Shown here: one piece after another, positions 6,082 through 35,620 of the stretch
How the letters are laid out: every line of letters begins with the position of its first letter
Numbering within the stretch: position 1 is the first letter of the stretch
DNA from: Vicinamibacteria bacterium
Lineage (GTDB): Bacteria > Acidobacteriota > Vicinamibacteria > Marinacidobacterales > Marinacidobacteraceae
Reading direction: 5' to 3'
DNA length: 64,000 nucleotides
NCBI GenBank assembly: GCA_964291235.2
Contig: OZ219816.1
Span: 544,001-608,000, forward strand
Made by a program: the position numbers and the translations under genes
Notes under the pieces: generated by a model
What the model saw: only the letters and a program-made list of their open reading frames with translations
Database searches by the model: none
What the model was told of the DNA's origin: nothing

Positions 6082-7155
6082 TCATCGTCCGGGCGTCAGG
6101 GCCGGCTGCTGGCGCGCGGGCGTGGGAGGCGTGATGCCCGGCACGCGCATCTCAGTTGCATCCGGAGGAGTCGGACCGTCGCGCCCGATCTGCTGGATGC
6201 GCTCCCTGGCGGGCTCCAGCAGATAACGGGAGATGCGTTCCGCTTCGGCAGCCGCGCGGTAGATCTCGCGAGGTTCGTCGGAAAGAGCCTTGATCCAGCT
6301 CTTGACGTACGCGGCGCTGTTGCCGTGCCCGTCACGGGGGAGGTGGCCAACGCCGATCCGCGCACCGGTCATCATGGCGCTGATCTCGGCGCGGAGTTCC
6401 TCGCGGGCGTAGGCGGGGCTGCCGAAACCGGCCTTGACGCCCTTGTGGAACGTCTGGCGGTCCAGCCGGCTTGCGTGGCCGGACGCGTGCGACAGCTCGT
6501 GGAGGGCGGTGGCGTAGTACTGCTCGGCACTCGGGAACTGGGCGCGCTCCGGAAGCACGATCTGGTCGGGCTTCGGGGCGTAGTAGGCGCGGTCGCCGGG
6601 CGAGTGCTTGATCGGGACGCTCGCGGCGTCGATTACGGCTTCGGCGGACTTGTGGGCCTGCCAGTCGGCCCCCGGGGCGTCGCGCGCCGGCAGGTCGAGG
6701 CCGCGCGCCTGCTCCACGTTGAACACCGTGTAGGTGCGGACGAACGCGCGGCCCTTGTCGTGGCGCTCGTAGACGGGCCGGCCGTCGCCATCGAGGACCT
6801 GGCGGCCTTGGCCGTCCTTCTTCGGCGAGATCTTCTTGGTGTCGAAGTACAGGATCTTTTCGCCGTGCTCGCCCTTCCTGACGTGGCCGCCGGCCTGGGC
6901 GATCTGGCGGAAGGTGGCCCACCGGTTGTCGGTGAACCCGCGCTCCTGCCCGGCGAGTGCGAGATATAGCGCGTTGCCGCCCGTGTACGGCTTGCCGCTG
7001 AAAGCGTTTTCGGGCATGAAACGCTCGCCGGGCTTCCACGGCTTCTGCCACGGGGCGGTTCCGGCCTCGATCTGCCGGACGATCGAGTCGGCGAACTGGC
7101 GGTGGTACTCGCCTACGCGGTCCTTGCTGGGAGCCTCGGTGCTGCCTAGGGCCAT
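6082..7155 (-). CDS. ardC: ArdC antirestriction protein (ssDNA-binding + zincin-like domains)
   Basis: APWQKPW, YTGGNALYL, RWATFRQI, VRKGEHG, VFNVEQ, HELSHASGH, YAREELRAEI. Confidence 0.92.
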   Translation of the reverse strand: MALGSTEAPSKDRVGEYHRQFADSIVRQIEAGTAPWQKPWKPGERFMPENAFSGKPYTGGNALYLALAGQERGFTDNRWATFRQIAQAGGHVRKGEHGEKILYFDTKKISPKKDGQGRQVLDGDGRPVYERHDKGRAFVRTYTVFNVEQARGLDLPARDAPGADWQAHKSAEAVIDAASVPIKHSPGDRAYYAPKPDQIVLPERAQFPSAEQYYATALHELSHASGHASRLDRQTFHKGVKAGFGSPAYAREELRAEISAMMTGARIGVGHLPRDGHGNSAAYVKSWIKALSDEPREIYRAAAEAERISRYLLEPARERIQQIGRDGPTPPDATEMRVPGITPPTPARQQPALTPGR

Positions 7156-16726: not shown

Positions 16727-17765
16727 TCACGCCCCGACGTATTCCCCCCAAGCGTCCATCACCGGCCTGCGCTCATCGAACAGATCGGTCCGCCGATAAG
16801 CGCCTTCGGCGCCCTGGACGGCATGGGCCAGCGCGGCCTCCGCCAGCATCGGCGCGTTCCCCTGCTCGGCGCTCCAATCGCTGAACGTCGAGCGGAACCC
16901 GTGAACCGTCGCACGCTCGCCCACGCCCGCCGACCACAGCGCGTTCGTCAGCGCCATGTCCTTCAACTCCCGATCCCCCGAATGCCCGGGGAACACCAGT
17001 TCGCACCCCTTCCGGCTCCGCAACCGGCGGGCGCGCTCCAGGACCGCGACCGCCTCCGGACTCAGGGGAACGCGATGCTCCTTCCCGGCCTTCATACGCT
17101 CGCCGGGAAGCGTCCAGGTGCGGTTCTCCAAATCGACCTCCGACCAGCGCGCCTCCCGGGCCTCGCCGCTGCCCGCCGCCGTCAGGATCAGGAACCGGAG
17201 GCAGAGGCGGACCGCCGCCCGCGATCGCGACCCCTCCACCTTCGCCAGCAGTTCGCGCACCTCGGCGTGCGGCAGGGCGCGATGGCTCTTCGGACGGCGC
17301 CGCCGTTGCGGGAGGGCTCCCTCGATCGCCTCGCCCGCCACGTTCCGCTCGACGAACTCCCGCGCCTGCGCCCAGCCCAGCACGGTACGGATCTGCTGGC
17401 GCACCCGCTGGGCGGTGGTCGGCTTCCGATTCCACAGGTCGTCCTGGAAGAGCACCCGGAGCACGTCATCCCCGCGGATGGCGTCCACGCGCATCGGTCC
17501 GAGCGCGGGGAAGACATACCGCGCAAGCGTCCTCTCCCACACCCGGGCGTGCCCGTCGCCCCGCCAGTTCGCCCTCCGCTCCGCCAGCGTCCGCTCCGCC
17601 GCCTCCGAAAACGTGGGGGCGGCCCCGCGGCGGCGCTCCGCGATGGGGTCCTTCCCTTCCCACAGGGCGCGGCGGTTCTGGAGCGCGGCCATGCGGGCCT
17701 CGGCGAGCGGCACCAGGTCGAGGGGTCCGATGGTGATGTCCCGGCGGACCCCGTTGACAGTCAAG
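16727..17765 (-). pseudogene. 5'-truncated P4-like integrase, near-identical to 24631-25779, catalytic Arg changed to Gly
   Basis: Identity to the intact copy ends at ~17765; LTAAGSGEA versus LTAARSGEA. Confidence 0.88.
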
Positions 17766-18143
17766 GGGGTCCGCGCCGGTCGCACTCGTGACCCATTGAC
17801 TCCCTTGCGTTTACGGAGATCGATCCGCTGCGCCGGCCCCCGCCGCGGCCCCCCGCGCGGATGGGGGCTTACGGGGAGTTTTCAGCCTGCGCGGGAACTC
17901 TGACGCACTCTACGGGTAGGCGGACAGGGCCGAGCATTCAGCACCCGCGTCCAACGCCCACGACCGAGAGCTGGCCCCGGCTCACGTGAACACGAAGCGC
18001 ATCAAAGGTGGCTCTTCGGCGGGCGGACCAGGCCGCCACCGGCTTCACGGAGGCCCTCCACCTCCCCAACGCCGGGGGAGGCCAATGAGGTCCTGACCGG
18101 CCTGGGTGAGGTGTCGGCTGTGCAGTGCAGGACGGTCGCGCCC

Positions 18144-20364: not shown

Positions 20365-20854
20365 CGGCGGCCCGGAGCGCCCGTTCGGAGCGGCGAGGTT
20401 GGCGGGGCGCGATGGAACGAGATGGACCTTGCGGGACGGGAATGGCGCATTCCGCCCGAGCAGATGAAGACGGGACGGTAGCACCGGGTTCCGCTGTCCT
20501 GGAGGGCGCTGACGGTCCTGCAGGAGTCTCAGGCGCTCGCGGACGGCTCCGGGGTGGTGTTTCCCCTCGGCCCGCGGCGGGCCGCTCCACGAGGGGGCGA
20601 TCTCGAAGCTGGTCCGGAGGCTGAAGATCGGTGCGGTGCCGCACGGGTTCCGTTCGAGCTTCCGTGACTGGGCGGCGGAGTGCTCGGATGCGCCGCGTGA
20701 AGTGTGCGAACTGGCGCTGGCTCACGTGAACATCAACGCCGTCGAGGCGGCCTGCCGGCGCACGGATCTGTTCGAGCGACGGCGGGCGCTCATGGAACAA
20801 TGGGCCGCGTTCCTGGCTGGGACCGAAGGCGCGGAACCGAGGCTCGCCGGATGA
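20365..20854 (+). pseudogene. Tyrosine-integrase C-terminal remnant 4
   Basis: TAARS..GEV.GARWNEMDL..WRIP..MKTGR*HRVPL, HGFRSSFRDWAAE...EAACRRTDLFERRRALMEQW (catalytic Tyr to Cys). Confidence 0.88.
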
Positions 20855-20949
20855 CCACAGCAGCGCCTCCGTGTGCCCTGCTGACGACTGTCATCAGGGC
20901 CACTTCGGCCGCGGGAACAGCCTTCGCGCCGGAAGGCCACTTGGGGTTA

Positions 20950-21113
20950 GGCCAGCCTACACAGTGTGAAACACTGGGCTCTGGCGAGGGGATGCTGCGC
21001 CCCCCTTCGAACCCCCGGCCTCTCGCGCCGCTGCCGTGGCAACGGCCGGACGGGGGCTCCGCCCCCGGACCCCCGCGGCGGTGCGCTCCTGGCAGAGCGG
21101 CGCACCGTTGTGG
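20950..21113 (+). repeat. Left copy of ~163-bp inverted repeat, hairpin-rich, oriT-like
   Basis: Aligns end to end with the reverse complement of 24186-24348; contains CAGTGTGAAACACTG and GGGGGCTCCGCCCCC hairpins. Confidence 0.85.
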
Positions 21114-21426
21114 TCCCCGCCCACCTCACACCGGCGGACCAGCTCGCCTCCGGCGAGGCGGAGGCCCTCCGGCTCCCCAACATCGAGGAGCCAGCCAACG
21201 AGGTCGAGAGCGGCGTCGTGGCCCCTTCCGCGGCCGGCGGGCATTACGGCGCTGCCGCGGGGACATAGGCGGCCCAAATTGCCGCGAATCGCGCGAGCCC
21301 GGAGCGATCGGAGCTTGCTATCCGACCGTCTGCGTGCCGCGTTTCACTCTCCTTCCCTCCGCCAGGTCAAGGAAGCCGACATTTGCCCCTTGAAAGATGT
21401 GCTCCGGCGTGTTGAACGTAATTGAC

Positions 21427-21825
21427 ATGAGACTACGACCCATCCACCTGACCGTGATTCCCCTGGCCGCGGTCGCAATTGCGCTGGCCTGTGACACTCC
21501 GGTGATCCCTCCGGCGGCTGGCCCCACGGGGGATGCTCCTACTGCTCCCGCTCCGGCACCAAACCACGCATCGCTGGAACTCGTCGGACCGGCCGGCCAG
21601 TCCGTGGCCGGCCATTCCGCACTCGGCCTCAAGGAGCACGTCGCTCTTCACGTTGGGCAGGCTCGTCGCATCGAGGAGGACTCCGACGCGCGCCTGCTCG
21701 CCGCGTTTCGCGGTGCCGGCGCCTCCGAGGAACAGCTCAAGCGGTGGCGCCTCGAAATGGAGGAGAGCCGGAGTCGGGACGCCAAGCACCTGCAGGCGCT
21801 GCTGACGGACATCCTGGAGCGTTGA
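21427..21825 (+). CDS. Hypothetical lipoprotein
   Basis: Lipobox IALAC after a hydrophobic leader; Pro/Ala linker; helical C-terminus. Confidence 0.7.
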   Translation: MRLRPIHLTVIPLAAVAIALACDTPVIPPAAGPTGDAPTAPAPAPNHASLELVGPAGQSVAGHSALGLKEHVALHVGQARRIEEDSDARLLAAFRGAGASEEQLKRWRLEMEESRSRDAKHLQALLTDILER

Positions 21826-21871
21826 GGTGCCAAGTCCCGTGTTTCGAGGATCGACGGCGAAGGCAAGACAG

Positions 21872-22141
21872 ATGAACGCCGGTTCCCGACTTCTCCTCGC
21901 CATCACCTTCGTCATCATGCACGCGGTCATCGGGCTCGCCGGCGCGACCTGCTGCCTTGACCGCGTGCTGGAGAGGTACGACTACTGCATCGACAAGGCG
22001 GAATACGATGCCATCGTTGAAGCTCAGCGGTGCGGAATTACTGACAACGCGTGTCGGCAAAGAGCGCTCGACAGGCTAAACGAGCGGAAGGCGGAGTGCC
22101 GCCAGATTCGAGATCGAGAGATGAGAGAATGCAACATCTAG
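21872..22141 (+). CDS. Secreted Cys-ladder miniprotein 1 (89 aa)
   Basis: Signal peptide ending AGA; 7 Cys; paralogue of the next gene. Confidence 0.8.
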   Translation: MNAGSRLLLAITFVIMHAVIGLAGATCCLDRVLERYDYCIDKAEYDAIVEAQRCGITDNACRQRALDRLNERKAECRQIRDREMRECNI

Positions 22142-22464
22142 TCCGTTTGCCCGATCGGCGTCGCGCGACGACGCCTCTTGCTTCGAGAGGTCTCGGCGTC
22201 TTCATCGTTTTCACCTTTGCCTTCATGCACGCTGTGGTCGTCTCTGCCGGTGCCACCTGTTGCATTGATGAGGCAATCGAGAGGGCCGACGCCTGCGAAG
22301 ATCAGGCGCAGGCGGACTCCCTTGCGGAGGCCGCGCGCTGCAAGCGGCGCATCCTTCCGCGCCGCATCGAACAATGCCTCCTGGAAGTGCACGCCCGGCA
22401 CCAGGAACGGAAGGACGAGTGCCGCCGGATTCGGGACGAGGAGATCTCCCAGTGCAATATCTAG
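22129..22464 (+). CDS. Secreted Cys-ladder miniprotein 2 (start approximate)
   Basis: Shares MHAV...AGATCC, ERK.ECR.IRD.E and terminal CNI* with paralogue 1. Confidence 0.8.
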   Translation: MQHLVRLPDRRRATTPLASRGLGVFIVFTFAFMHAVVVSAGATCCIDEAIERADACEDQAQADSLAEAARCKRRILPRRIEQCLLEVHARHQERKDECRRIRDEEISQCNI

Positions 22465-22895
22465 GGTCACAACGGAAGGTTGCAGCGTTTAGCGGCGGGA
22501 TGGCTGTCGGCGTCTTCGCCTTCGTGCTCTTCGAAGGCGCTTCGGAAATCAGTGGAGTCCTTCCCGACGCCGTTGTTGCGGCGATTACGATGTTTGCGGG
22601 CACTCTGGTCGGCACCCTGGTTTGGTCGTCGATCGGCGGGTGGCTGAAGACACGGCCAGAGCCCCCCGTCCTCGTGAGCGCCGGCATCGGAGCCGTTCTC
22701 GCCGTTGGTTTGGCCGGCGCTTTTGCCATCGTCGTCCACAACTACTGGGGCGTTCTGTTAGGTGAACCGCTCGGGATTCTCCACGACGTTGGCTTTTGGC
22801 TCGCGATTTCCCTGTGGAACTCCATCGGCTACGGGTTGGCCGTCAGCCCGGCCGTGCGCGCCGAGACCACCTCTGTCTCGAAGCAGCCGAGCTGA
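22452..22895 (+). CDS. Hypothetical ~4-TM membrane protein (GTG 22452 or ATG 22500)
   Basis: Four hydrophobic segments; GAGGAG upstream of the GTG. Confidence 0.7.
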   Translation: MQYLGSQRKVAAFSGGMAVGVFAFVLFEGASEISGVLPDAVVAAITMFAGTLVGTLVWSSIGGWLKTRPEPPVLVSAGIGAVLAVGLAGAFAIVVHNYWGVLLGEPLGILHDVGFWLAISLWNSIGYGLAVSPAVRAETTSVSKQPS

Positions 22896-22970
22896 GTGCA
22901 TTCGGGCACAAAACATCCTTGTCTGATCCAGGGAAGGCGTTCCGGCCGGACGCTCCACGAAGAGGCTGTC

Positions 22971-23990
22971 ATGGCGACTCCGAACTCTGAGTGGGAACAC
23001 CCGGACCTCGCGTATGACGCGGAGGAACCCGGAGAAGAGCGTCTCTCGTCCGAAGCACGCGCACCGAGCGAAACGGACGCGGAGGCGCACGGGCAAGCCG
23101 ATCTGGATTTGATAGCGCTCTACGTCCGGGACGGGCGCCGGCATCGCCAGTTCCGCGGGAGTGAGCCCCGGCGGTGCCGACGCGCCCCGCGACCGGACGG
23201 GGCAACCGATCCGGATGGCATTTGCGCCGCCCCCCGCAAACAGTTCAACGGCGAGTTCGGCCGTGAGCGGATGGTCGAGAGCAACCTGGGCCTCGTCGTC
23301 ACTATCGCGAAGAGCTACCGGAACCTCGGACTGCCACTCGGCGACCTCATCCAGGAGGGCAACCTCGGACTCCTGCACGCGGCCCGTCGGTTCGAACCGA
23401 AGCCGGGCCGCAGTTTCTGCGCCTACGCCGCTGGGTGGATTCGCCAGACGATCTGCCGGGCGCTCTCCCAACAGTCGAGGACGATTCGTATTCCCTTACG
23501 CCGCCTTGAGCTCCGGCGGCACGCCTGCGAGGTGGAGGCACACGAGGAACAACGGTCTGGCAACGCGTGTTGCACGGGGGATAGACGCCCGCCCCACACG
23601 ACCGAATACGCAGCTCGAGAGCTGGGAGTCAGCGTCGAGCAACTGCGCTCCACGATCGTTCTGGTATCCGACATCGAGTCGCTCGACACGTCCCCCGCTA
23701 CGAACGGCCTCCCGTGGGTTCTGTCGCTTCCGGATCCCGGGTCCCCGGATCCGTGCGAGACCGCGGCCGGTACCGAGCAGTGGCGGCGTCTGCGCGTCGC
23801 CCTCTCTCACTTGCCGGAGCGCCTCCGACACCTCCTGGAGATGCGATTCGGCCTTGCGGACGGCCAAGAATCCAGCCTTGCCGAAATCGGACGGGCCCTC
23901 CACGTCAGCACGGAGCGGGCGCGGCAATTGCAGCAGCAGGCGCTCGACCGCCTCCGCCGCGACCCCGGGCTCCGGGGACCGCGCGTCTGA
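22971..23990 (+). CDS. Divergent RpoD/RpoS-like sigma-70 factor
   Basis: MVESNLGLVVTIAKSY, DLIQEGNLGL, WIRQ, RTIRIP, region 4 SLAEIGRALHVSTERARQL. Confidence 0.9.
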   Translation: MATPNSEWEHPDLAYDAEEPGEERLSSEARAPSETDAEAHGQADLDLIALYVRDGRRHRQFRGSEPRRCRRAPRPDGATDPDGICAAPRKQFNGEFGRERMVESNLGLVVTIAKSYRNLGLPLGDLIQEGNLGLLHAARRFEPKPGRSFCAYAAGWIRQTICRALSQQSRTIRIPLRRLELRRHACEVEAHEEQRSGNACCTGDRRPPHTTEYAARELGVSVEQLRSTIVLVSDIESLDTSPATNGLPWVLSLPDPGSPDPCETAAGTEQWRRLRVALSHLPERLRHLLEMRFGLADGQESSLAEIGRALHVSTERARQLQQQALDRLRRDPGLRGPRV

Positions 23991-24185
23991 CTCGCAGCCG
24001 GTCGTACTTCGAGGACTCCCCGTGCAAGAAAGACAGCGGTATCGCCGGATTGTGTGCGGCGGAGTAGTCCGGCCCCGCTCCCAGTTGTTGCCGATCATGT
24101 GGTGGACCCGGAACGGGTTCGCCGGGTCGCGGTACACCGGGGTGATCAGAGGGGGCCCGGTCCGCCCGCGCGAGGCGGTCAGCAG

Positions 24186-24348
24186 CCACAACGGTGCGCC
24201 GCTCCGCCAGGAGCGTACCGGTGCGGGGATCCGGGGGCGGAGCCCCCGTCCGCCCGGTGCTCCCGCAGCGGCTCGAAGGGCCGGGGGTTCGAAGGGGGGC
24301 GCGGCACCCCCTCGCCAGTCCCAGTGTTTAACACTGGGTATGCTGGCC
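24186..24348 (-). repeat. Right copy of ~163-bp inverted repeat, oriT-like
   Basis: Reverse complement of 20950-21113; CCCAGTGTTTAACACTGGG hairpin. Confidence 0.85.
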
Positions 24349-24630
24349 CTCGTGCATAAGCACGTTAGCCAGCCTCTGGGATGGGGACCATCCCGGGACC
24401 TCGACAGCGCCGATGGCTCCTCACCGAGAAGCTGGCAGCTCGACGCGGCACCTCACCGATCCCGAGCTGACGAACCGGCCTCGAGATCGCCCCGTCAAAC
24501 AGCGGGCCGGTCTGCGCCGAGAGGGAATGCCGTCTCCGAGCCGGTGGCGAACGCTCTCGGCTCGCGGAGCACCGCGAGCGCCGCTGTGGACACTGGTAGC
24601 CGGTGGTCCCCGTAGCCTCCGGGTCGGTGT

Positions 24631-25779
24631 TTACGCCCCGATGTATTCCCCCCAAGCGTCCATCACCGACCTTCGCTCGTCGAACAGGTCGGTCCGCCGA
24701 TACGCGCCTTCGACGCCCTGGACCGTATGGGCCAGCGCCGCCTCCGCCAGCATCGGCGCGTTCCCCCGCTCGGCGCTCCAGTCGCTGAACGTCGAGCGGA
24801 ACCCGTGAACCGTCGCACGCTCGCCCACGCCCGCCGCCCACAGCGCGTTCGTCAGCGCCATGTCCTTCAACGCCCGATCCCCCGAACGTCCGGGGAACAC
24901 CAGCTCGCACCCCTTCCGGCTCCGCAACCGGCGGGCGCGCTCCAGGACCGCCACCGCCTCCGGACTCAGGGGAACGCGGTGCTCCTTCCCGGCCTTCATG
25001 CGCTCGCCGGGAAGCGTCCAGGTGCGCCTGTCCACGTCGATCTCCGACCAGCGCGCGCCCCGCGCCTCGCCGCTGCGCGCCGCCGTCAGGATCAGGAACC
25101 GGAGGCAGAGGCGCACCGCCGCCCGCGACCGCGACCCCTCCACCTTCGCCAGCAGTTCGCGCACCTCGGCGTGCGGCAGGGCGCGATGGCTCCTCGGACG
25201 GCGCCGCCGCTTCGGGAGGGCTCCCTCGATCGCCTCGCCCGCCACGTTCCGCTCGACGAACTCCCGCGCCTGCGCCCAGCCCAGCACGGTACGGATCTGC
25301 TGGCGCACCCGCTGGGCGGTGGTCGGCTTCCGATTCCACAGGTCGTCCTGGAAGAGCACCCGGAGCACGTCATCCCCGCGGATCGCGTCCACGCGCATCG
25401 GTCCGAGCGCGGGGAAGACATACCGCGCCAGCGTCCGCTCCCACGCCCGCGCGTACCCGTCGCCCCGCCAGTTCGCCCGGCGCTCCGCCAGCGTCCGCTC
25501 CGCCGCCTCCGAAAACGTCGGGACCGCCCCGCGGCGGCGCTCGGCGATGGGGTCCTTCCCCTCCCACAGGGCGCGGCGGTTCTGGAGGGCGACCATGCGG
25601 GCCTCGGCGAGCGGCACCAGGTCGAAGGGTCCGATGGTGATGTCGCGGCGGACGCCGTTGACGGTCAAGCGCTGGACCCACACTTTGGTGGCCCGAATCC
25701 GCAGGTAGAGGCCGCCGCCGGCGCAGTAGCGCCCGGGTTCCTTGAGGGCCTTGGCTCTCGCCGCCGTCATGTTCGCCAT
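24631..25779 (-). CDS. int: P4-like tyrosine integrase with arm-binding domain (intact, 382 aa)
   Basis: PGRY..GGGLYLRI, TAARSGE, MKAGKEHRVPL, HGFRSTF, LAH, AYRRTDL. Confidence 0.93.
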   Translation of the reverse strand: MANMTAARAKALKEPGRYCAGGGLYLRIRATKVWVQRLTVNGVRRDITIGPFDLVPLAEARMVALQNRRALWEGKDPIAERRRGAVPTFSEAAERTLAERRANWRGDGYARAWERTLARYVFPALGPMRVDAIRGDDVLRVLFQDDLWNRKPTTAQRVRQQIRTVLGWAQAREFVERNVAGEAIEGALPKRRRRPRSHRALPHAEVRELLAKVEGSRSRAAVRLCLRFLILTAARSGEARGARWSEIDVDRRTWTLPGERMKAGKEHRVPLSPEAVAVLERARRLRSRKGCELVFPGRSGDRALKDMALTNALWAAGVGERATVHGFRSTFSDWSAERGNAPMLAEAALAHTVQGVEGAYRRTDLFDERRSVMDAWGEYIGA

Positions 25780-25962
25780 ATTGCCGCCTCCGAGGTGACG
25801 AGGCCCCCCTATTGGCCCTCGCGATCGGCGGGAAGTGTAGCGCTTCGGCAGGACGGAAGCGGGCGGCACGGGAATCGGTATCAGGCTCTAATCCATTGGT
25901 GTTCTTGCACTATAGGCCCGTATATGGCCTTCTGGGAACATGCAGGAGCCATTCACTATGGA

Positions 25963-26166
25963 TGAAAGGGGGGCACCCCCCCTTTCACAAAAAGAAGGCG
26001 CTGATCGATCGGAACTCGCCGTAGCGCGCGCTGGGCGCGCAAGGGAGTTTCGATCCCGGCGCGAAGCGCCGGGCGGCCCCGGGAGGGGGCTTTCCCGAAT
26101 GTCCGCGCGACTCTTCCCGAACACGTCGGCGCGGCGGCCCCCTCCCGGGACCGCTCAGTGCGAGCC
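25963..26166 (-). repeat. Family A ~230-bp palindromic intergenic repeat (truncated at island edge)
   Basis: Reverse-orientation homologue of 30209-30439. Confidence 0.85.
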
Positions 26167-26190
26167 CGGTGGGGCCGGACGGCCCCACCG
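26167..26190 (-). terminator. GC hairpin after the TBDR stop, possible terminator
   Basis: CGGTGGGGCC-GGAC-GGCCCCACCG perfect 10-bp stem; no clear U tract. Confidence 0.45.
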
Positions 26191-30172: not shown

Positions 30173-30208
30173 GCGACGGAGGCCCTTCCCCAGTTCACCG
30201 CACCAATA

Positions 30209-30688
30209 GGAGCGCCGGCCTCGCACTGAGCGGCCCCGGGGGGGGGCCGCCGTGTGGATGTTGAGAGGGAGAGTCGTGGAGGCATCGGGGAAGGCCCCCT
30301 CCCGGGACCGCCCGGCGCTTCGCGCCGGGATCGCAACTCCCTTGCGCGCCGGGGGCGCGCGGCGGCGAGTTCCGATCCATCAGCGCCTTCTTCTTGTGAA
30401 AGGGGGGGCTGCCCCCCCTTTCACACTTTCCCCCCCGGACCGAGGAGTAGGAGCGCCGGCCAGGAGCGCCGGCCTCGCACTGAGCGGCCCCGGGGGGGGC
30501 CGCCGTGTGGATGTTGAGAGGGAGAGTCGTGGAGGCATCGGGGAAGGCCCCCTCCCGGGACCGCCCGGCGCTTCGCGCCGGGATCGCAACTCCCTTGCGC
30601 GCCGGAGGCGCGCTGCGGCGAGTTCCGATCCATCAGCGCCTTTTTCTTGTGAAAGGGGGGGCAGCCCCCCTTTCACACTTTCCCCCCG
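30209..30688 (+). repeat. Two tandem family A repeats (period ~254 bp), each led by a REP half-site GGAGCGCCGGCC
   Basis: 30209-30439 and 30462-30688 are nearly identical. Confidence 0.92.
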
Positions 30689-30831
30689 CGTGGGGTGGCG
30701 CACAGGCAAGGGAACGCCGATCTCCAGATCGGCACCCGCCCGCGCAGCGGGCGGAACCGCGCCTCGCTCCCCAGCCCCACAGCCCGCCGGCAAGGGAGCG
30801 CCGGCCGGCATCGCGGCCGCGGGCTCAGCTC

Positions 30832-33811: not shown

Positions 33812-34792
33812 GTGCCGGTCACCTACTTCGAGGCCATTCGGCGGGCGCTCCGCTCGGAGATGGAGCGCGACCCCCGGGTGATCCTGCTCGGGGAGGACAT
33901 CGGGCTGTACGGCGGGGCCTTCCGGCTGACGGACGGATTTCTGGATGACTTCGGTCCCGATCGGGTGCTCGACACCCCAATCAGCGAAGAGGGATTTACC
34001 GGAATGGCGGTTGGCGCGGCGCTCGCCGGTTTCCGTCCCGTGGTGGAGTTCCAGTTCATGGACTTCATCGCGAGCGCGTTCAACATGGTGACGAACTTCG
34101 CCGCCAAGAGCCACTACCGGGCCGGCGCCGCGGTTCCCATCGTGCTCCGGGGCCCCTCCGGCGCCGGCGTCCGCGCGGGACCGTTTCATTCCCAGAATCC
34201 GGAAGCCCACTTCGCGCACACTCCGGGAATCAAGGTCGCGGCGCCCGCCACGGCGCCGGACGCCGCCGGTCTCCTGCGGGCCGCGATCCGCGACGACGAT
34301 CCGGTGCTCTTCCTCGAGCACAAGCGCCTCTACCGGAGCCTGCGGGTCCCGGACGACGAGTTCGAGCGCGCGCCCGAGGTTGTTCCGCTGGGGAAGGCGG
34401 CGATCCGGCGGGCAGGCGACGCACTCACGATTGCCACCTACGGTGCGGCGGTGTGGGTGGCGCTCGAGGCCGCCGAAGAACTGGCCGCCGACGGGATCGA
34501 AGCGGAGGTTCTGGACCTCCGGTGTCTGGTTCCGCTCGACCGGGAGGCGCTGTTCGATTCCGTCCGCCGCACGAGCCGGTTGCTGGTGCTCCACGAGGAC
34601 AACCTGACCGGCGGTTTCGGCGGCGAGATCGCGGCGCTCGCCGCCGAGCACGTCTTCAGCGATCTGGACGCCCCGGTGATCCGGATCGCGGCCGCCGACA
34701 CCCCGGTCCCCTACGCGGCCGAACTCGAGGACGCAGTGCTGCCGAACGCCGCCCGGGTGGTGGCGGCGGCGCGCCGCCTGCTGCGCTACTGA
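33812..34792 (+). CDS. 2-oxoacid dehydrogenase E1 beta subunit
   Basis: GEDIG..GGAF, DTPISE, EFQFMDF, GPFHSQ, FLEHK. Confidence 0.93.
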   Translation: MPVTYFEAIRRALRSEMERDPRVILLGEDIGLYGGAFRLTDGFLDDFGPDRVLDTPISEEGFTGMAVGAALAGFRPVVEFQFMDFIASAFNMVTNFAAKSHYRAGAAVPIVLRGPSGAGVRAGPFHSQNPEAHFAHTPGIKVAAPATAPDAAGLLRAAIRDDDPVLFLEHKRLYRSLRVPDDEFERAPEVVPLGKAAIRRAGDALTIATYGAAVWVALEAAEELAADGIEAEVLDLRCLVPLDREALFDSVRRTSRLLVLHEDNLTGGFGGEIAALAAEHVFSDLDAPVIRIAAADTPVPYAAELEDAVLPNAARVVAAARRLLRY

Positions 34793-34795
34793 GCG

Positions 34796-35620
34796 TAGGA
34801 GCGCCGGCCTCTGGCCGGCATCGCTTCGCATAGGGGAGCGAGTTCGCGCGTCGCCTTCTAGCCGGACGGTGCAACCTGCACGCGGGCGATTGCGCCGTCT
34901 CCACGCTTCCTCTCTGGTGGCCCACCCCTGCTCGGCCATACGTCGCGCCGGCACGGGAACGCCGGCCTCCAGGCCGGCACAGCGGCCCGCAGGGCCGCGT
35001 CGGCACAAACGCCACCCGTCGGCATGGCTCCCGTCTCGACCCCTACCCCACTGAGGCCGACGGGGAAGGAGGGACATCGGTGAACGCTCTGGCCGCCCTC
35101 CGGGCTCCCGCCGCTCTCCCCAACGTCCCTCATTCCCTGCCGAAACAGGCTCCCCAGGGTGACAAAGTTCGTGTCGTTTGACAGGTCCCCGCCGAGAGGG
35201 GAACCGTTCGGACGCTGGGGAGCCGTCCCGCCGCCCCGCTTTGCGGGGCTGTGCCGGCCTGGAGCACGGCGTTCCCGTGCCGGTGCGTTGTGGGGCTGGA
35301 GGGCGATGTGCTGTCCGCGGGCCTGCGGCCCGCTGTGCCGGCCTGGAGGCCGGCGTTCCCGTGCCGGCGTCACGGGTGGCTGGGGAGGAGTACGCGCTGG
35401 CGGGTGCCGGCCCCACCGAGCGCGAAAAAAATGGCAGCGAACCTTGTTCGCTGCCGGCGTGACCGGGGGGAAAGTGTGAAAGGGGGGCACCCCCCCTTTC
35501 ACAAGAAGGTAACGACGAACCGGAACTCGCCGAAGCGCGCGTCAGCGCGCGAGGGAGTTGCGGTTCGCGGCGCGCAGCGCCGGGGGACCGGAAGGGGGGC
35601 GTGACTCTGAACGGGATCGC
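34796..35620. repeat. BIME-like cluster of REP palindromes plus a partial family A repeat
   Basis: GG(A/G)ACGCCGGCCTCCAGGCCGGCA-type copies in both orientations; 35190-35620 is homologous to the reverse of 52975-53550. Confidence 0.85.

Follow-up and report, generated by a model that had tools for sequence, protein, structure and literature searches.

Two paralogous proteins with a mirrored seven-cysteine pattern in a mobile five-gene cassette of a marine Acidobacteriota: candidates for paired, disulfide-stapled helical hairpins

What kind of proteins are encoded by the two short, overlapping reading frames found at positions 21,872 to 22,464 of the DNA considered here, and what might they do? 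The DNA, hereafter the window, is a stretch of 64,000 nucleotides from a Vicinamibacteria bacterium (Acidobacteriota), positions 544,001 to 608,000 of contig OZ219816.1. The two products, which we call A and B, are paralogues with seven cysteines each in a mirrored arrangement, and a previous reading of the letters alone (the sequence-only reading) had described them as secreted miniproteins folded into stapled helical hairpins. The account that we favor, to which we give a probability of about one half, is that A and B are exported, disulfide-stapled hairpins that pair with one another. The features on which it is based are the following.

21872-22141, forward strand: gene A, whose translation is an 89-residue precursor.
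Within A: a hydrophobic N-terminal segment (residues 7-25) ending AGA, then a 64-residue domain, TCC-x10-C-x14-C-GITDNA-C-x14-C-x10-C-NI.
22129-22464, forward strand: gene B, a 111-residue paralogue of A, whose ATG lies within the last codons of A (ATGCAACATCTAG).
Within B: a basic n-region, a hydrophobic segment (residues 22-40) ending AGA, then a 69-residue domain with Cys spacing as in A.
22034-22051, forward strand: apex loop of A (GITDNA, residues 55-60), which A-type members conserve.
22342-22374, forward strand: apex segment of B (residues 72-82, KRRILPRRIEQ), basic and Pro-containing, modelled as non-helical only at 72-76.

The pattern that had been read from the letters, T-C-C-x10-C-x14-C-loop-C-x14-C-x10-C-N-I after AGA, is reproduced in the translations of both genes, and the loop (GITDNA, 6 residues, in A; KRRILPRRIEQ, 11 residues, in B) is indeed their sole difference in spacing. 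The arms are rich in E, R, A and D, as had been claimed (0.60 of the arm residues in A, 0.65 in B), and the two proteins are 46% identical (BLASTP, E 9e-24). A six-frame regular-expression search of the 3.45 Mb source genome for C-x10-C-x14-C-x3-16-C-x14-C-x10-C returned 4 matches, when 0.006 are expected from the frequency of Cys; all 4 are A, B and their second genomic copy, and the pattern is not a product of chance.

In what follows, G000 is the source genome, L005 is a locus in genome G008, L013 a metagenome locus and L021 a locus in genome G021. Compared with the orthologous locus L005, the proportions of synonymous (pS) and nonsynonymous (pN) differences are 0.529 and 0.184 for A, and 0.546 and 0.202 for B; the differences at codon positions 1/2/3 number 19/18/33 in A and 9/6/18 in the arms of B. 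By this comparison A and B are coding and under purifying selection, with pN/pS ~0.35. Both frames are unbroken in both genomic copies. Alignment of 13 A- and B-type sequences shows the seven Cys to be invariant throughout, along with R35, D37, D41, D46, R68, E71, R72, K73, R77, R80, D81 and E83.

How widespread are these proteins? Word-indexed searches of 5.8 billion proteins gave 5 relatives for A and 7 for B, none with a Pfam domain or a meaningful name, and a profile search of 1.84 billion representatives (E <= 0.001) gave 7 matches, which are 6 true clusters and one spurious repeat protein (P0022). The clusters that were looked up are singletons or near-singletons, all nameless. A single locus was found in the metagenome contig collection (L013), another in the genome contig collection (L005), and none in the viral contig collection. 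Neither A nor B matches anything in Pfam or NCBIfam at E <= 1, and the sequence profile search of the PDB gave one chance row (E 0.93). Literature searches turned up no published bacterial family with this Cys-stapled hairpin architecture: those on the CX14C + CX10C spacing returned mitochondrial, Toll-like receptor (TLR) or sand-fly proteins, those on Cys-rich small secreted proteins of Acidobacteriota only fungal and plant papers, one on disulfide-bearing helical hairpins of the bacterial periplasm listed nothing about such a family, and the genus name "Marinacidobacterium" returned nothing. Judging from these searches, the A/B family is very rare and unnamed.

The member table holds 18 full-length sequences, after a fragment at a contig end (P0016) and P0022 were left out. 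The seven Cys and the identical arm spacing are kept in 17 of them, the exception being P0019, which has Gly at the third Cys (C3) and retains C6. The loop may have 4, 6, 8, 9, 10 or 11 residues, and the entropy peaks in its columns (1.31 bits, compared with 0.75-0.86 in the arms). Six of the eight A-type members share the loop consensus G-[IVM]-T-D-x-[AE]; B-type loops are basic, Pro-containing, 8-11 residues long and differ between species. Within a single study, the contigs of three near-identical runs (X1, X3 and X4; the fourth, X5, has no coverage of A/B) contain zero variants of either loop, and the DNA contigs of these runs contain only the two known genomic variants. The apex is therefore variable between species, as the sequence-only reading had it, but the idea that it is diversifying finds no support, since the A loop is conserved in most A-type members, no loop variants occur in the contigs of those three runs and B varies as loops usually do. 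Nor did the suggestion of a binder, inhibitor or toxin scaffold find any backing from the family searches, in which no toxin, inhibitor or binder family was matched.

The antiparallel helical hairpin, on the contrary, is what AlphaFold2 models for both proteins. In A, a helix (3-53) is followed by a turn (54-58) and a second helix (59-86), with a mean predicted local-distance difference test score (pLDDT) of 87 that exceeds 90 across the Cys domain; in B, the corresponding elements are residues 16-71, 72-76 and 77-108, with a pLDDT of 79.5. The Cys steps of 11 and 15 residues place the cysteines in one stripe per helix, within 14 degrees, at 26/7 residues per turn, which is the periodicity of nearly straight hendecad/pentadecad helices. 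With one stripe on each arm and mirrored spacing, the proposed nested ladder C2-C7, C3-C6, C4-C5 fits the predicted fold; the pairing is a putative one, and P0019, which lacks C3 yet has C6, does not conform to it. The arms differ in charge (-3/+3 in A, -6/-1 in B, plus a +4 loop in B): arm 1 is acidic, and arm 2 and, in B, the loop are more basic. A Foldseek comparison of the model with the PDB gave nothing at E <= 0.001, and the best Z of a wide VIA-align comparison was 9.4, with generic helical hairpins in all rows and no row at the level needed for helical models to be meaningful.

Do A and B work together? The prediction of a complex, made with the mature portions (A 26-89 and B 43-111, a separate alignment being used for each) and in the A+B combination only, scored 0.73 (0.73, 0.77 and 0.73 in separate runs), and the best of 3 controls scored 0.10. 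The 0.73 mark is reached by 116 of 157 solved complexes and by 2 of 215 mismatched pairs. The runs agree on at least 93% of the contacts, with a partner pLDDT of at least 87. The contacts (A29-B46, A29-B106, A33-B102/103, A37-B99, A40-B57/95, A77-B54, A80-B50 and A84-B46/50) describe a parallel, side-by-side four-helix bundle, with the loops at one end and the termini and both CC doublets at the other. D37 and R77 of A and their equivalents in B, D54 and R99, are invariant, and these Asp and Arg contact their counterparts across the interface. No Cys is found among the confident inter-chain contacts. The model supports a heterodimeric four-helix bundle. The CC doublets lie side by side in it, so that a link between A and B through the spare first Cys, as had been imagined from the letters, is geometrically reasonable; the neighborhood of the doublets agrees with that idea, and the interchain bond itself is plausible on geometry only.

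Independent hints that A and B form one unit come from the genomes. The two genes adjoin at every locus seen (both copies in G000, L005 in G008, and L013), the most divergent A-like (P0021) and B-like (P0020) members each lie on a 4506-bp contig, and the N-termini of B-type proteins (ER[MVL]QHL) bear the imprint of an upstream ...ECNI stop overlap.

As for export, each protein has a single hydrophobic segment (7-25 in A, 22-40 in B; Kyte-Doolittle hydropathy 2.33 and 2.25), preceded by a basic n-region and followed in most members by small residues at -3/-1. Most members have A-G-A, A-D-A or A-G-S ahead of the residue that precedes CC, and every member has an alternative A|G site. The word "secreted" of the sequence-only reading is consistent with this Sec-like segment and its small residues, but the segment is long, conserved and has a His, which would fit an anchor as well; judged from the sequences, a cleaved signal and a membrane anchor are both possible, and export and cleavage are what we infer for A and B. 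Two other types of signal were considered and rejected: a lipobox, since the first Cys is preceded by T, N, Q, G or A among the 18 members, and a Tat signal for B, since its RR is not conserved among orthologues (RK, HR) and the consensus motif is absent.

A periplasm in which disulfides could form is consistent with the gene content of the organism. The source genome has a candidate periplasmic oxidase with VKOR and thioredoxin-fold (DsbA-like) domains in one 504-codon open frame (G000:C2:1891422-1892588, outside the window), and DsbB was not found in this genome, which is only 90% complete. From the presence of the one and the failure to find the other, the organism probably uses a VKOR-type oxidase.

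The mechanism that we propose is the following. A and B would be inserted into or through the cytoplasmic membrane by their N-terminal hydrophobic segment, with a positive-inside n-region, and a domain of 64 or 69 residues would be placed in the oxidising periplasm. There it would fold as an antiparallel hairpin, the first arm acidic and the second more basic. The Cys, which the 11- and 15-residue steps align in one stripe per helix, could then be oxidised to the three nested staples, most likely by the VKOR/DsbA-type system of the genome. One A and one B hairpin would pack side by side as a pseudo-symmetric four-helix bundle, held by the reciprocal invariant Asp-Arg pairs and a few aliphatic residues, and the adjoining CC doublets could allow the seventh Cys of each chain to form an interchain bond. 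The A/B pair would be the cargo of a self-contained mobile five-gene cassette.

Several observations weigh against this account. Regarding export, the uncharged stretch of the N-terminal segment runs to 19-23 residues, and the paralogues agree at 9 of 14 of its positions (TFVIMHAVIGLAGA in A, TFAFMHAVVVSAGA in B), compared with 46% overall. A His stands mid-segment, on a helical face (F, M-H, A-G) that is itself conserved, in 17 of 18 members, and in two members the residue at -1 of the putative cleavage site is Pro. Taken at face value, the segment resembles a functional transmembrane helix more than a signal peptide that is to be discarded. Regarding the staples, P0019 makes it clear that the C3-C6 bond is not universal, because it has Gly in place of C3 and retains C6. 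Regarding the models, the alignments behind them have little depth (13, 10 and 8-9 rows), and predictors readily produce long helical hairpins. Last, the score of the A-B complex covers the heterodimer alone, and homodimers, being close cousins of the true partner, could pass such a prediction too.

The His-bearing stretch corresponds to residues 13-25 of A (21908-21946) and 30-42 of B (22216-22254); its conservation is unexplained for a plain signal peptide.

If the Cys were not oxidised, they could be thiolate ligands, and the A-B bundle would be a periplasmic protein for the binding or storage of a metal, Cu(I), Zn or Cd. The heterodimer has fourteen Cys, striped along its helices in a predicted four-helix bundle, and metal-handling genes are often accessory and mobile, which we count in favor of this idea. 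The cysteines are sparse, however, one every 11-15 residues, and their absence from the confident interface is consistent with their facing the other arm of their own hairpin; no conserved His or Met accompanies them, apart from the His of the hydrophobic segment. In addition, no Pfam family is matched, including the Cys-rich four-helix-bundle families, the predicted location is an oxidising periplasm in an organism that has a VKOR/DsbA-type oxidase, and the cassette has neither a metal transporter nor a metal regulator. We consider a role in metal binding very unlikely.

The stapled, paired hairpins that we favor must also be seen in the context of the genes that surround them, which are listed below.

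21389-21416, forward strand: promoter-like element CTTGAAA-N8-CCGGCGTGTTGAA, ending ~10 nt upstream of the point where the first cassette gene probably starts.
21427-21825, forward strand: first cassette gene (P0003 family), with a lipoprotein-like signal (AIALAC-D) and a charged helical C-terminal part; no family match.
22452-22895, forward strand: fourth cassette gene (P0004/P0023 family), a membrane protein of 131-147 residues with 3-4 hydrophobic segments; no family match.
22896-23990, forward strand: fifth cassette gene, a sigma-70-family factor with regions 2 and 4, directly after the stop of the membrane-protein gene.

The order lipoprotein-like gene, A, B, 3-4-TM (transmembrane) protein, sigma factor is the same in L005, from a Candidatus Marinacidobacterium sp. 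(Acidobacteriota, Vicinamibacteria), and positions 21403-23956 of the window are homologous to 5534-8142 of L005. The start of the first gene (ATG 21427) was deduced from its orthologues; its product has the lipobox-like IALAC that A and B do not have. In the searches against Pfam and NCBIfam, the lipoprotein-like and the membrane protein each gave a single row at chance level (E 0.28 and 0.11), falling far short of the curated cut-offs, and against the PDB, P0003 and P0023 gave chance rows only. For the four small cassette proteins (P0001-P0004), no family of PADLOC or PHROGs was found at E <= 0.1, and no anti-sigma domain profile of Pfam or NCBIfam matched. The membrane-protein family, which has 12 clusters and no Pfam domain, is as rare as A/B. 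In the ESM Atlas, the best scores were 0.79 for A and 0.89 for the membrane protein, both for unnamed clusters, and we regard them as leads only.

The genes are tightly joined. The GTG start of the fourth gene lies within the last codons of B (GTGCAATATCTAG), and a 13-nt stop/start overlap, [AG]TGCAA[CT]ATCTAG, marks the junction between A and B and that between B and the membrane-protein gene (22129-22141 and 22452-22464 in the window, 6258-6270 and 6575-6587 in L005), and, in G021, the junction of two membrane-protein copies (L021 1045-1057, reverse strand). B and the membrane protein consequently both begin with MQ[HY]L. Such overlaps indicate that the A, B and membrane-protein genes are translationally coupled, and they suggest that the units of the cassette arose by tandem duplication or unequal crossing-over at the 13-nt junction.

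The promoter-like element is conserved in three genomes with the consensus CTTGAAA-N8-CCGG[CT]GTGTTGAA; it is also present at ~5520-5547 of L005 and, on the reverse strand of L021, upstream of 1791. In the source genome it was recognised only at the two cassette copies. Ending ~10 nt before the start codon, it would imply a very short leader, and it may be the own promoter of the cassette sigma factor. A scan of 20800-24700 for sigma-70-type promoters and terminators gave 0 promoter-like sites, and terminator-like sites that did not exceed those in shuffled sequences.

The best NCBIfam rows of the sigma gene are of the RpoS/RpoD types, all under the cut-offs, and it may in fact begin at ATG 22971. 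The genome also has sigma paralogues at other sites (48% and 44% identity), with no similar cassette around them. In L005 (7137-8176, genome G008), the acidic N-terminal part of the sigma factor (METPNSEWE...) is out of frame with the sigma domains, when the window has one frame; this break could be a frameshift or an assembly error in the record.

The presence of a sigma factor raises the question of whether A and B are part of a signalling device. They may be uncleaved, single-pass membrane proteins which, together with the lipoprotein-like and 3-4-TM proteins, make up a sensor in the envelope, of periplasmic redox or of disulfide stress for instance, that holds or releases the sigma factor. 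The hydrophobic segment is long enough to span the membrane, its conserved face (F/M-H/A-G) and near-invariant His suggest intramembrane packing between helices, and AlphaFold2 continues the N-terminal helix straight into arm 1. With A, B and the membrane-protein gene linked by overlaps, and the sigma gene directly abutting the last of these, the products would be made in a fixed ratio, and a sigma factor is adjacent in all three genomes that have the cassette or its remnant. Such a sensor would have almost nothing in the cytoplasm with which to hold the sigma factor: the cytoplasmic parts are tiny (6 residues in A, ~20 in B, two tails of ~16 residues and a 7-residue loop in the membrane protein), known anti-sigma domains being far larger, and no anti-sigma family was matched in Pfam or NCBIfam. 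Besides, the promoter-like element is recognisable only on the cassette itself, so that no wider regulon is visible, and G021 retains the sigma factor and the membrane proteins in the absence of A and B. On balance we find this sensor improbable, although it has to be reckoned with, and we return to the exported, paired hairpins as the cargo of a mobile element, whose features are the following.

20851-26090, no strand assigned: duplicated segment of 5.2 kb containing the cassette and an integrase; the second copy is inverted, at G000:C2:1672724-1677889, with 94-96% nucleotide identity.
24631-25869, reverse strand: tyrosine integrase (Arm-DNA-bind_3, Phage_int_M, Phage_integrase), inside the duplicated segment.
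20386-20854, forward strand: remnant of another tyrosine integrase gene, made up of C-terminal pieces in two frames and bordering the duplicated segment on its left.

Within 9 kb there are thus three tyrosine-integrase genes or remnants (16727-17785, reverse; 20386-20854, forward; 24631-25869, reverse), two of which are 95% identical over ~1 kb, and the whole genome has about nine integrase-like stretches. The region is accordingly rich in islands. In G008, the cassette (L005) is a 2,915-nt insert between a peptidase-like gene and a TRAP transporter gene, with no integrase nearby; the corresponding empty site of the source genome measures 51 nt. The flanks of this site are 76-244 bp apart in 14 of the 16 genomes of the genus, the exceptions being G008, with its insert, and G002, a genome of 66% completeness in which one flank is missing. 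A and B were found in 1 of the 15 other genomes of the genus, and their profiles match in 3 of 61 related genomes, including their own (G000, G008, and a remnant in G021). In G021, which belongs to another genus of the same family, the cassette is degenerate (C36, 605-1791, reverse strand): the lipoprotein-like gene runs into a 16-residue ...AECRRIRDRETRECDI tail of a Cys protein, the TAG being changed to TGG, A and most of B are lost, and the membrane protein occurs as two diverged copies (45% and 37% identity) joined in a single frame of 298 codons, which the sigma gene follows. Comparison of these genomes indicates that the cassette is horizontally mobile.

The two ends of the L005 insert show an inverted match of 11 nt, which was considered as a pair of terminal repeats; it has no counterpart in the window and we treat it as chance.

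GC-rich repeats of 50-250 nt occur at dozens of places on both contigs of the source genome (in the window at 25963-26169, 30208-30690 and 34790-35000), often in arrays with a spacing of 85-121 bp. A 253-bp unit is tandemly duplicated at 30208-30687. These repeats look like repetitive extragenic palindromes (REP) or miniature inverted-repeat transposable elements (MITE).

Could A and B then be decaying or non-functional passengers of a selfish, integrase-associated element, or even untranslated frames? Their very narrow and patchy distribution, the neighborhood rich in integrases and repeats and the loss of genes in G021 go in that direction. This would be hard to reconcile with the pN/pS of ~0.35 and the excess of third-position differences, with seven Cys and many charged residues that are invariant despite 45% identity between the paralogues, with a gene order and start/stop overlaps that are conserved at independent genomic sites, and with two frames that are intact in both genomic copies. 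We regard it as extremely improbable.

If A and B are functional exported hairpins, what is their function? Since no small protein of the cassette matches a known family, any answer rests on the gene layout. Our leading guess, a tentative one in which we have clearly less confidence than in the structural account, is by analogy that of an exported two-chain effector whose cognate partner would be the downstream polytopic protein, in the manner of a toxin and its immunity protein, under a private sigma factor and promoter. Two adjacent small exported proteins are followed by a small polytopic membrane protein, the genes are mobile and patchily distributed, and G021, where A and B are gone, still has copies of the membrane protein. 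On the other side, Pfam, NCBIfam, PADLOC and PHROGs give no link of the four small proteins to toxins, immunity or defence, the cassette has no dedicated exporter for passage across the outer membrane, and the tight coupling to a sigma factor would fit a regulatory module equally well. The more elaborate version is speculative and, in our opinion, unlikely: A and B would be an undescribed Sec-dependent toxin or competition factor, a heterodimeric bundle with seven disulfides, with the polytopic protein as immunity protein, the lipoprotein as an aid to release, a private sigma factor and promoter, and a cassette of 2.6-2.9 kb that moves as a unit.

The comparison with known helical hairpins and bundles helps to situate the family. 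The sequence-only reading had likened A and B to alpha-hairpinins and to twin-CX9C proteins, with a different spacing, and the spacing does differ: each arm has CX10C + CX14C, and no CX3C is found in the 18 members. For mitochondrial twin-CXnC hairpins, PMC3518125 describes CX9C+CX10C (Cox12/Coa6) and CX13C+CX14C (Mic23), so that spacings of 10, 13 and 14 do occur. As is predicted for A and B, these CHCH-type, Cox17-like proteins are described there as small helix-loop-helix proteins of an oxidising compartment, with Cys at whole helical turns and nested disulfides (PMC3518125). They differ from A and B in being eukaryotic and imported post-translationally by Mia40, with two staples, no N-terminal signal and no CC doublet, whereas A and B have a mirrored CX10C+CX14C in each arm, three Cys per stripe, a seventh Cys and a Sec-type N-terminus, and no Pfam match at E <= 1.

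Plant alpha-hairpinins and scorpion kappa-type toxins are secreted helical hairpins with nested disulfides that serve as inhibitor or toxin scaffolds. They are eukaryotic, have ~25-40 residues, a CX3C...CX3C pattern and two staples, and they are not known to form heterodimers of adjacent paralogues. WXG100 pairs such as EsxA/EsxB, on the contrary, are adjacent paralogous helical hairpins of ~100 residues which leave the cytoplasm as a heterodimeric four-helix bundle. A and B share with them the adjacent paralogous genes, which here overlap, and a predicted heterodimeric bundle (0.73, against 0.10 for the best control). The WXG100 proteins have no Cys ladder or N-terminal signal; they have a W-x-G turn, type VII export in the folded state and antiparallel packing. 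A and B have no WXG100 match in Pfam and no W-x-G in 18 loops, and their predicted packing is parallel.

Regarding gene layout, the loci of two-peptide bacteriocins and pore-forming colicins combine small exported products with small polytopic immunity proteins and lipoprotein release factors. The order A, B, 3-4-TM protein (in the window, in the second copy and in L005), with a lipoprotein gene, resembles that of two-peptide bacteriocin loci, a likeness in layout only: A and B have no double-glycine leader, no GxxxG-type membrane helices in their mature parts and no match to a bacteriocin, colicin or immunity family, and the cassette contains no ABC exporter/peptidase or other transporter gene. 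Csp copper storage proteins are exported too, as single-chain bundles with 13-18 Cys that point into the core at i, i+3/4. A and B would differ from them by their two chains, their sparse Cys at i+11/i+15, none of which is in a confident inter-chain contact, and the absence of a family match at E <= 1.

We read A and B as an orphan bacterial variant of the principle of the stapled helical hairpin. If the models are right, what is new is the three staples at hendecad/pentadecad spacing, the odd seventh Cys, a predicted obligate heterodimer of paralogues and a loop that tolerates 4-11 residues. Should both the fold and the pairing hold, A and B would be a compact and very stable natural two-chain scaffold with a permissive apex. 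Their carrier is unusual as well, with five genes in less than 3 kb, its own sigma factor and an apparently private promoter, inserted cleanly between conserved genes in one species and beside integrases in another. Resolving the role of this cassette would add a type of module from the little-studied marine Acidobacteriota.

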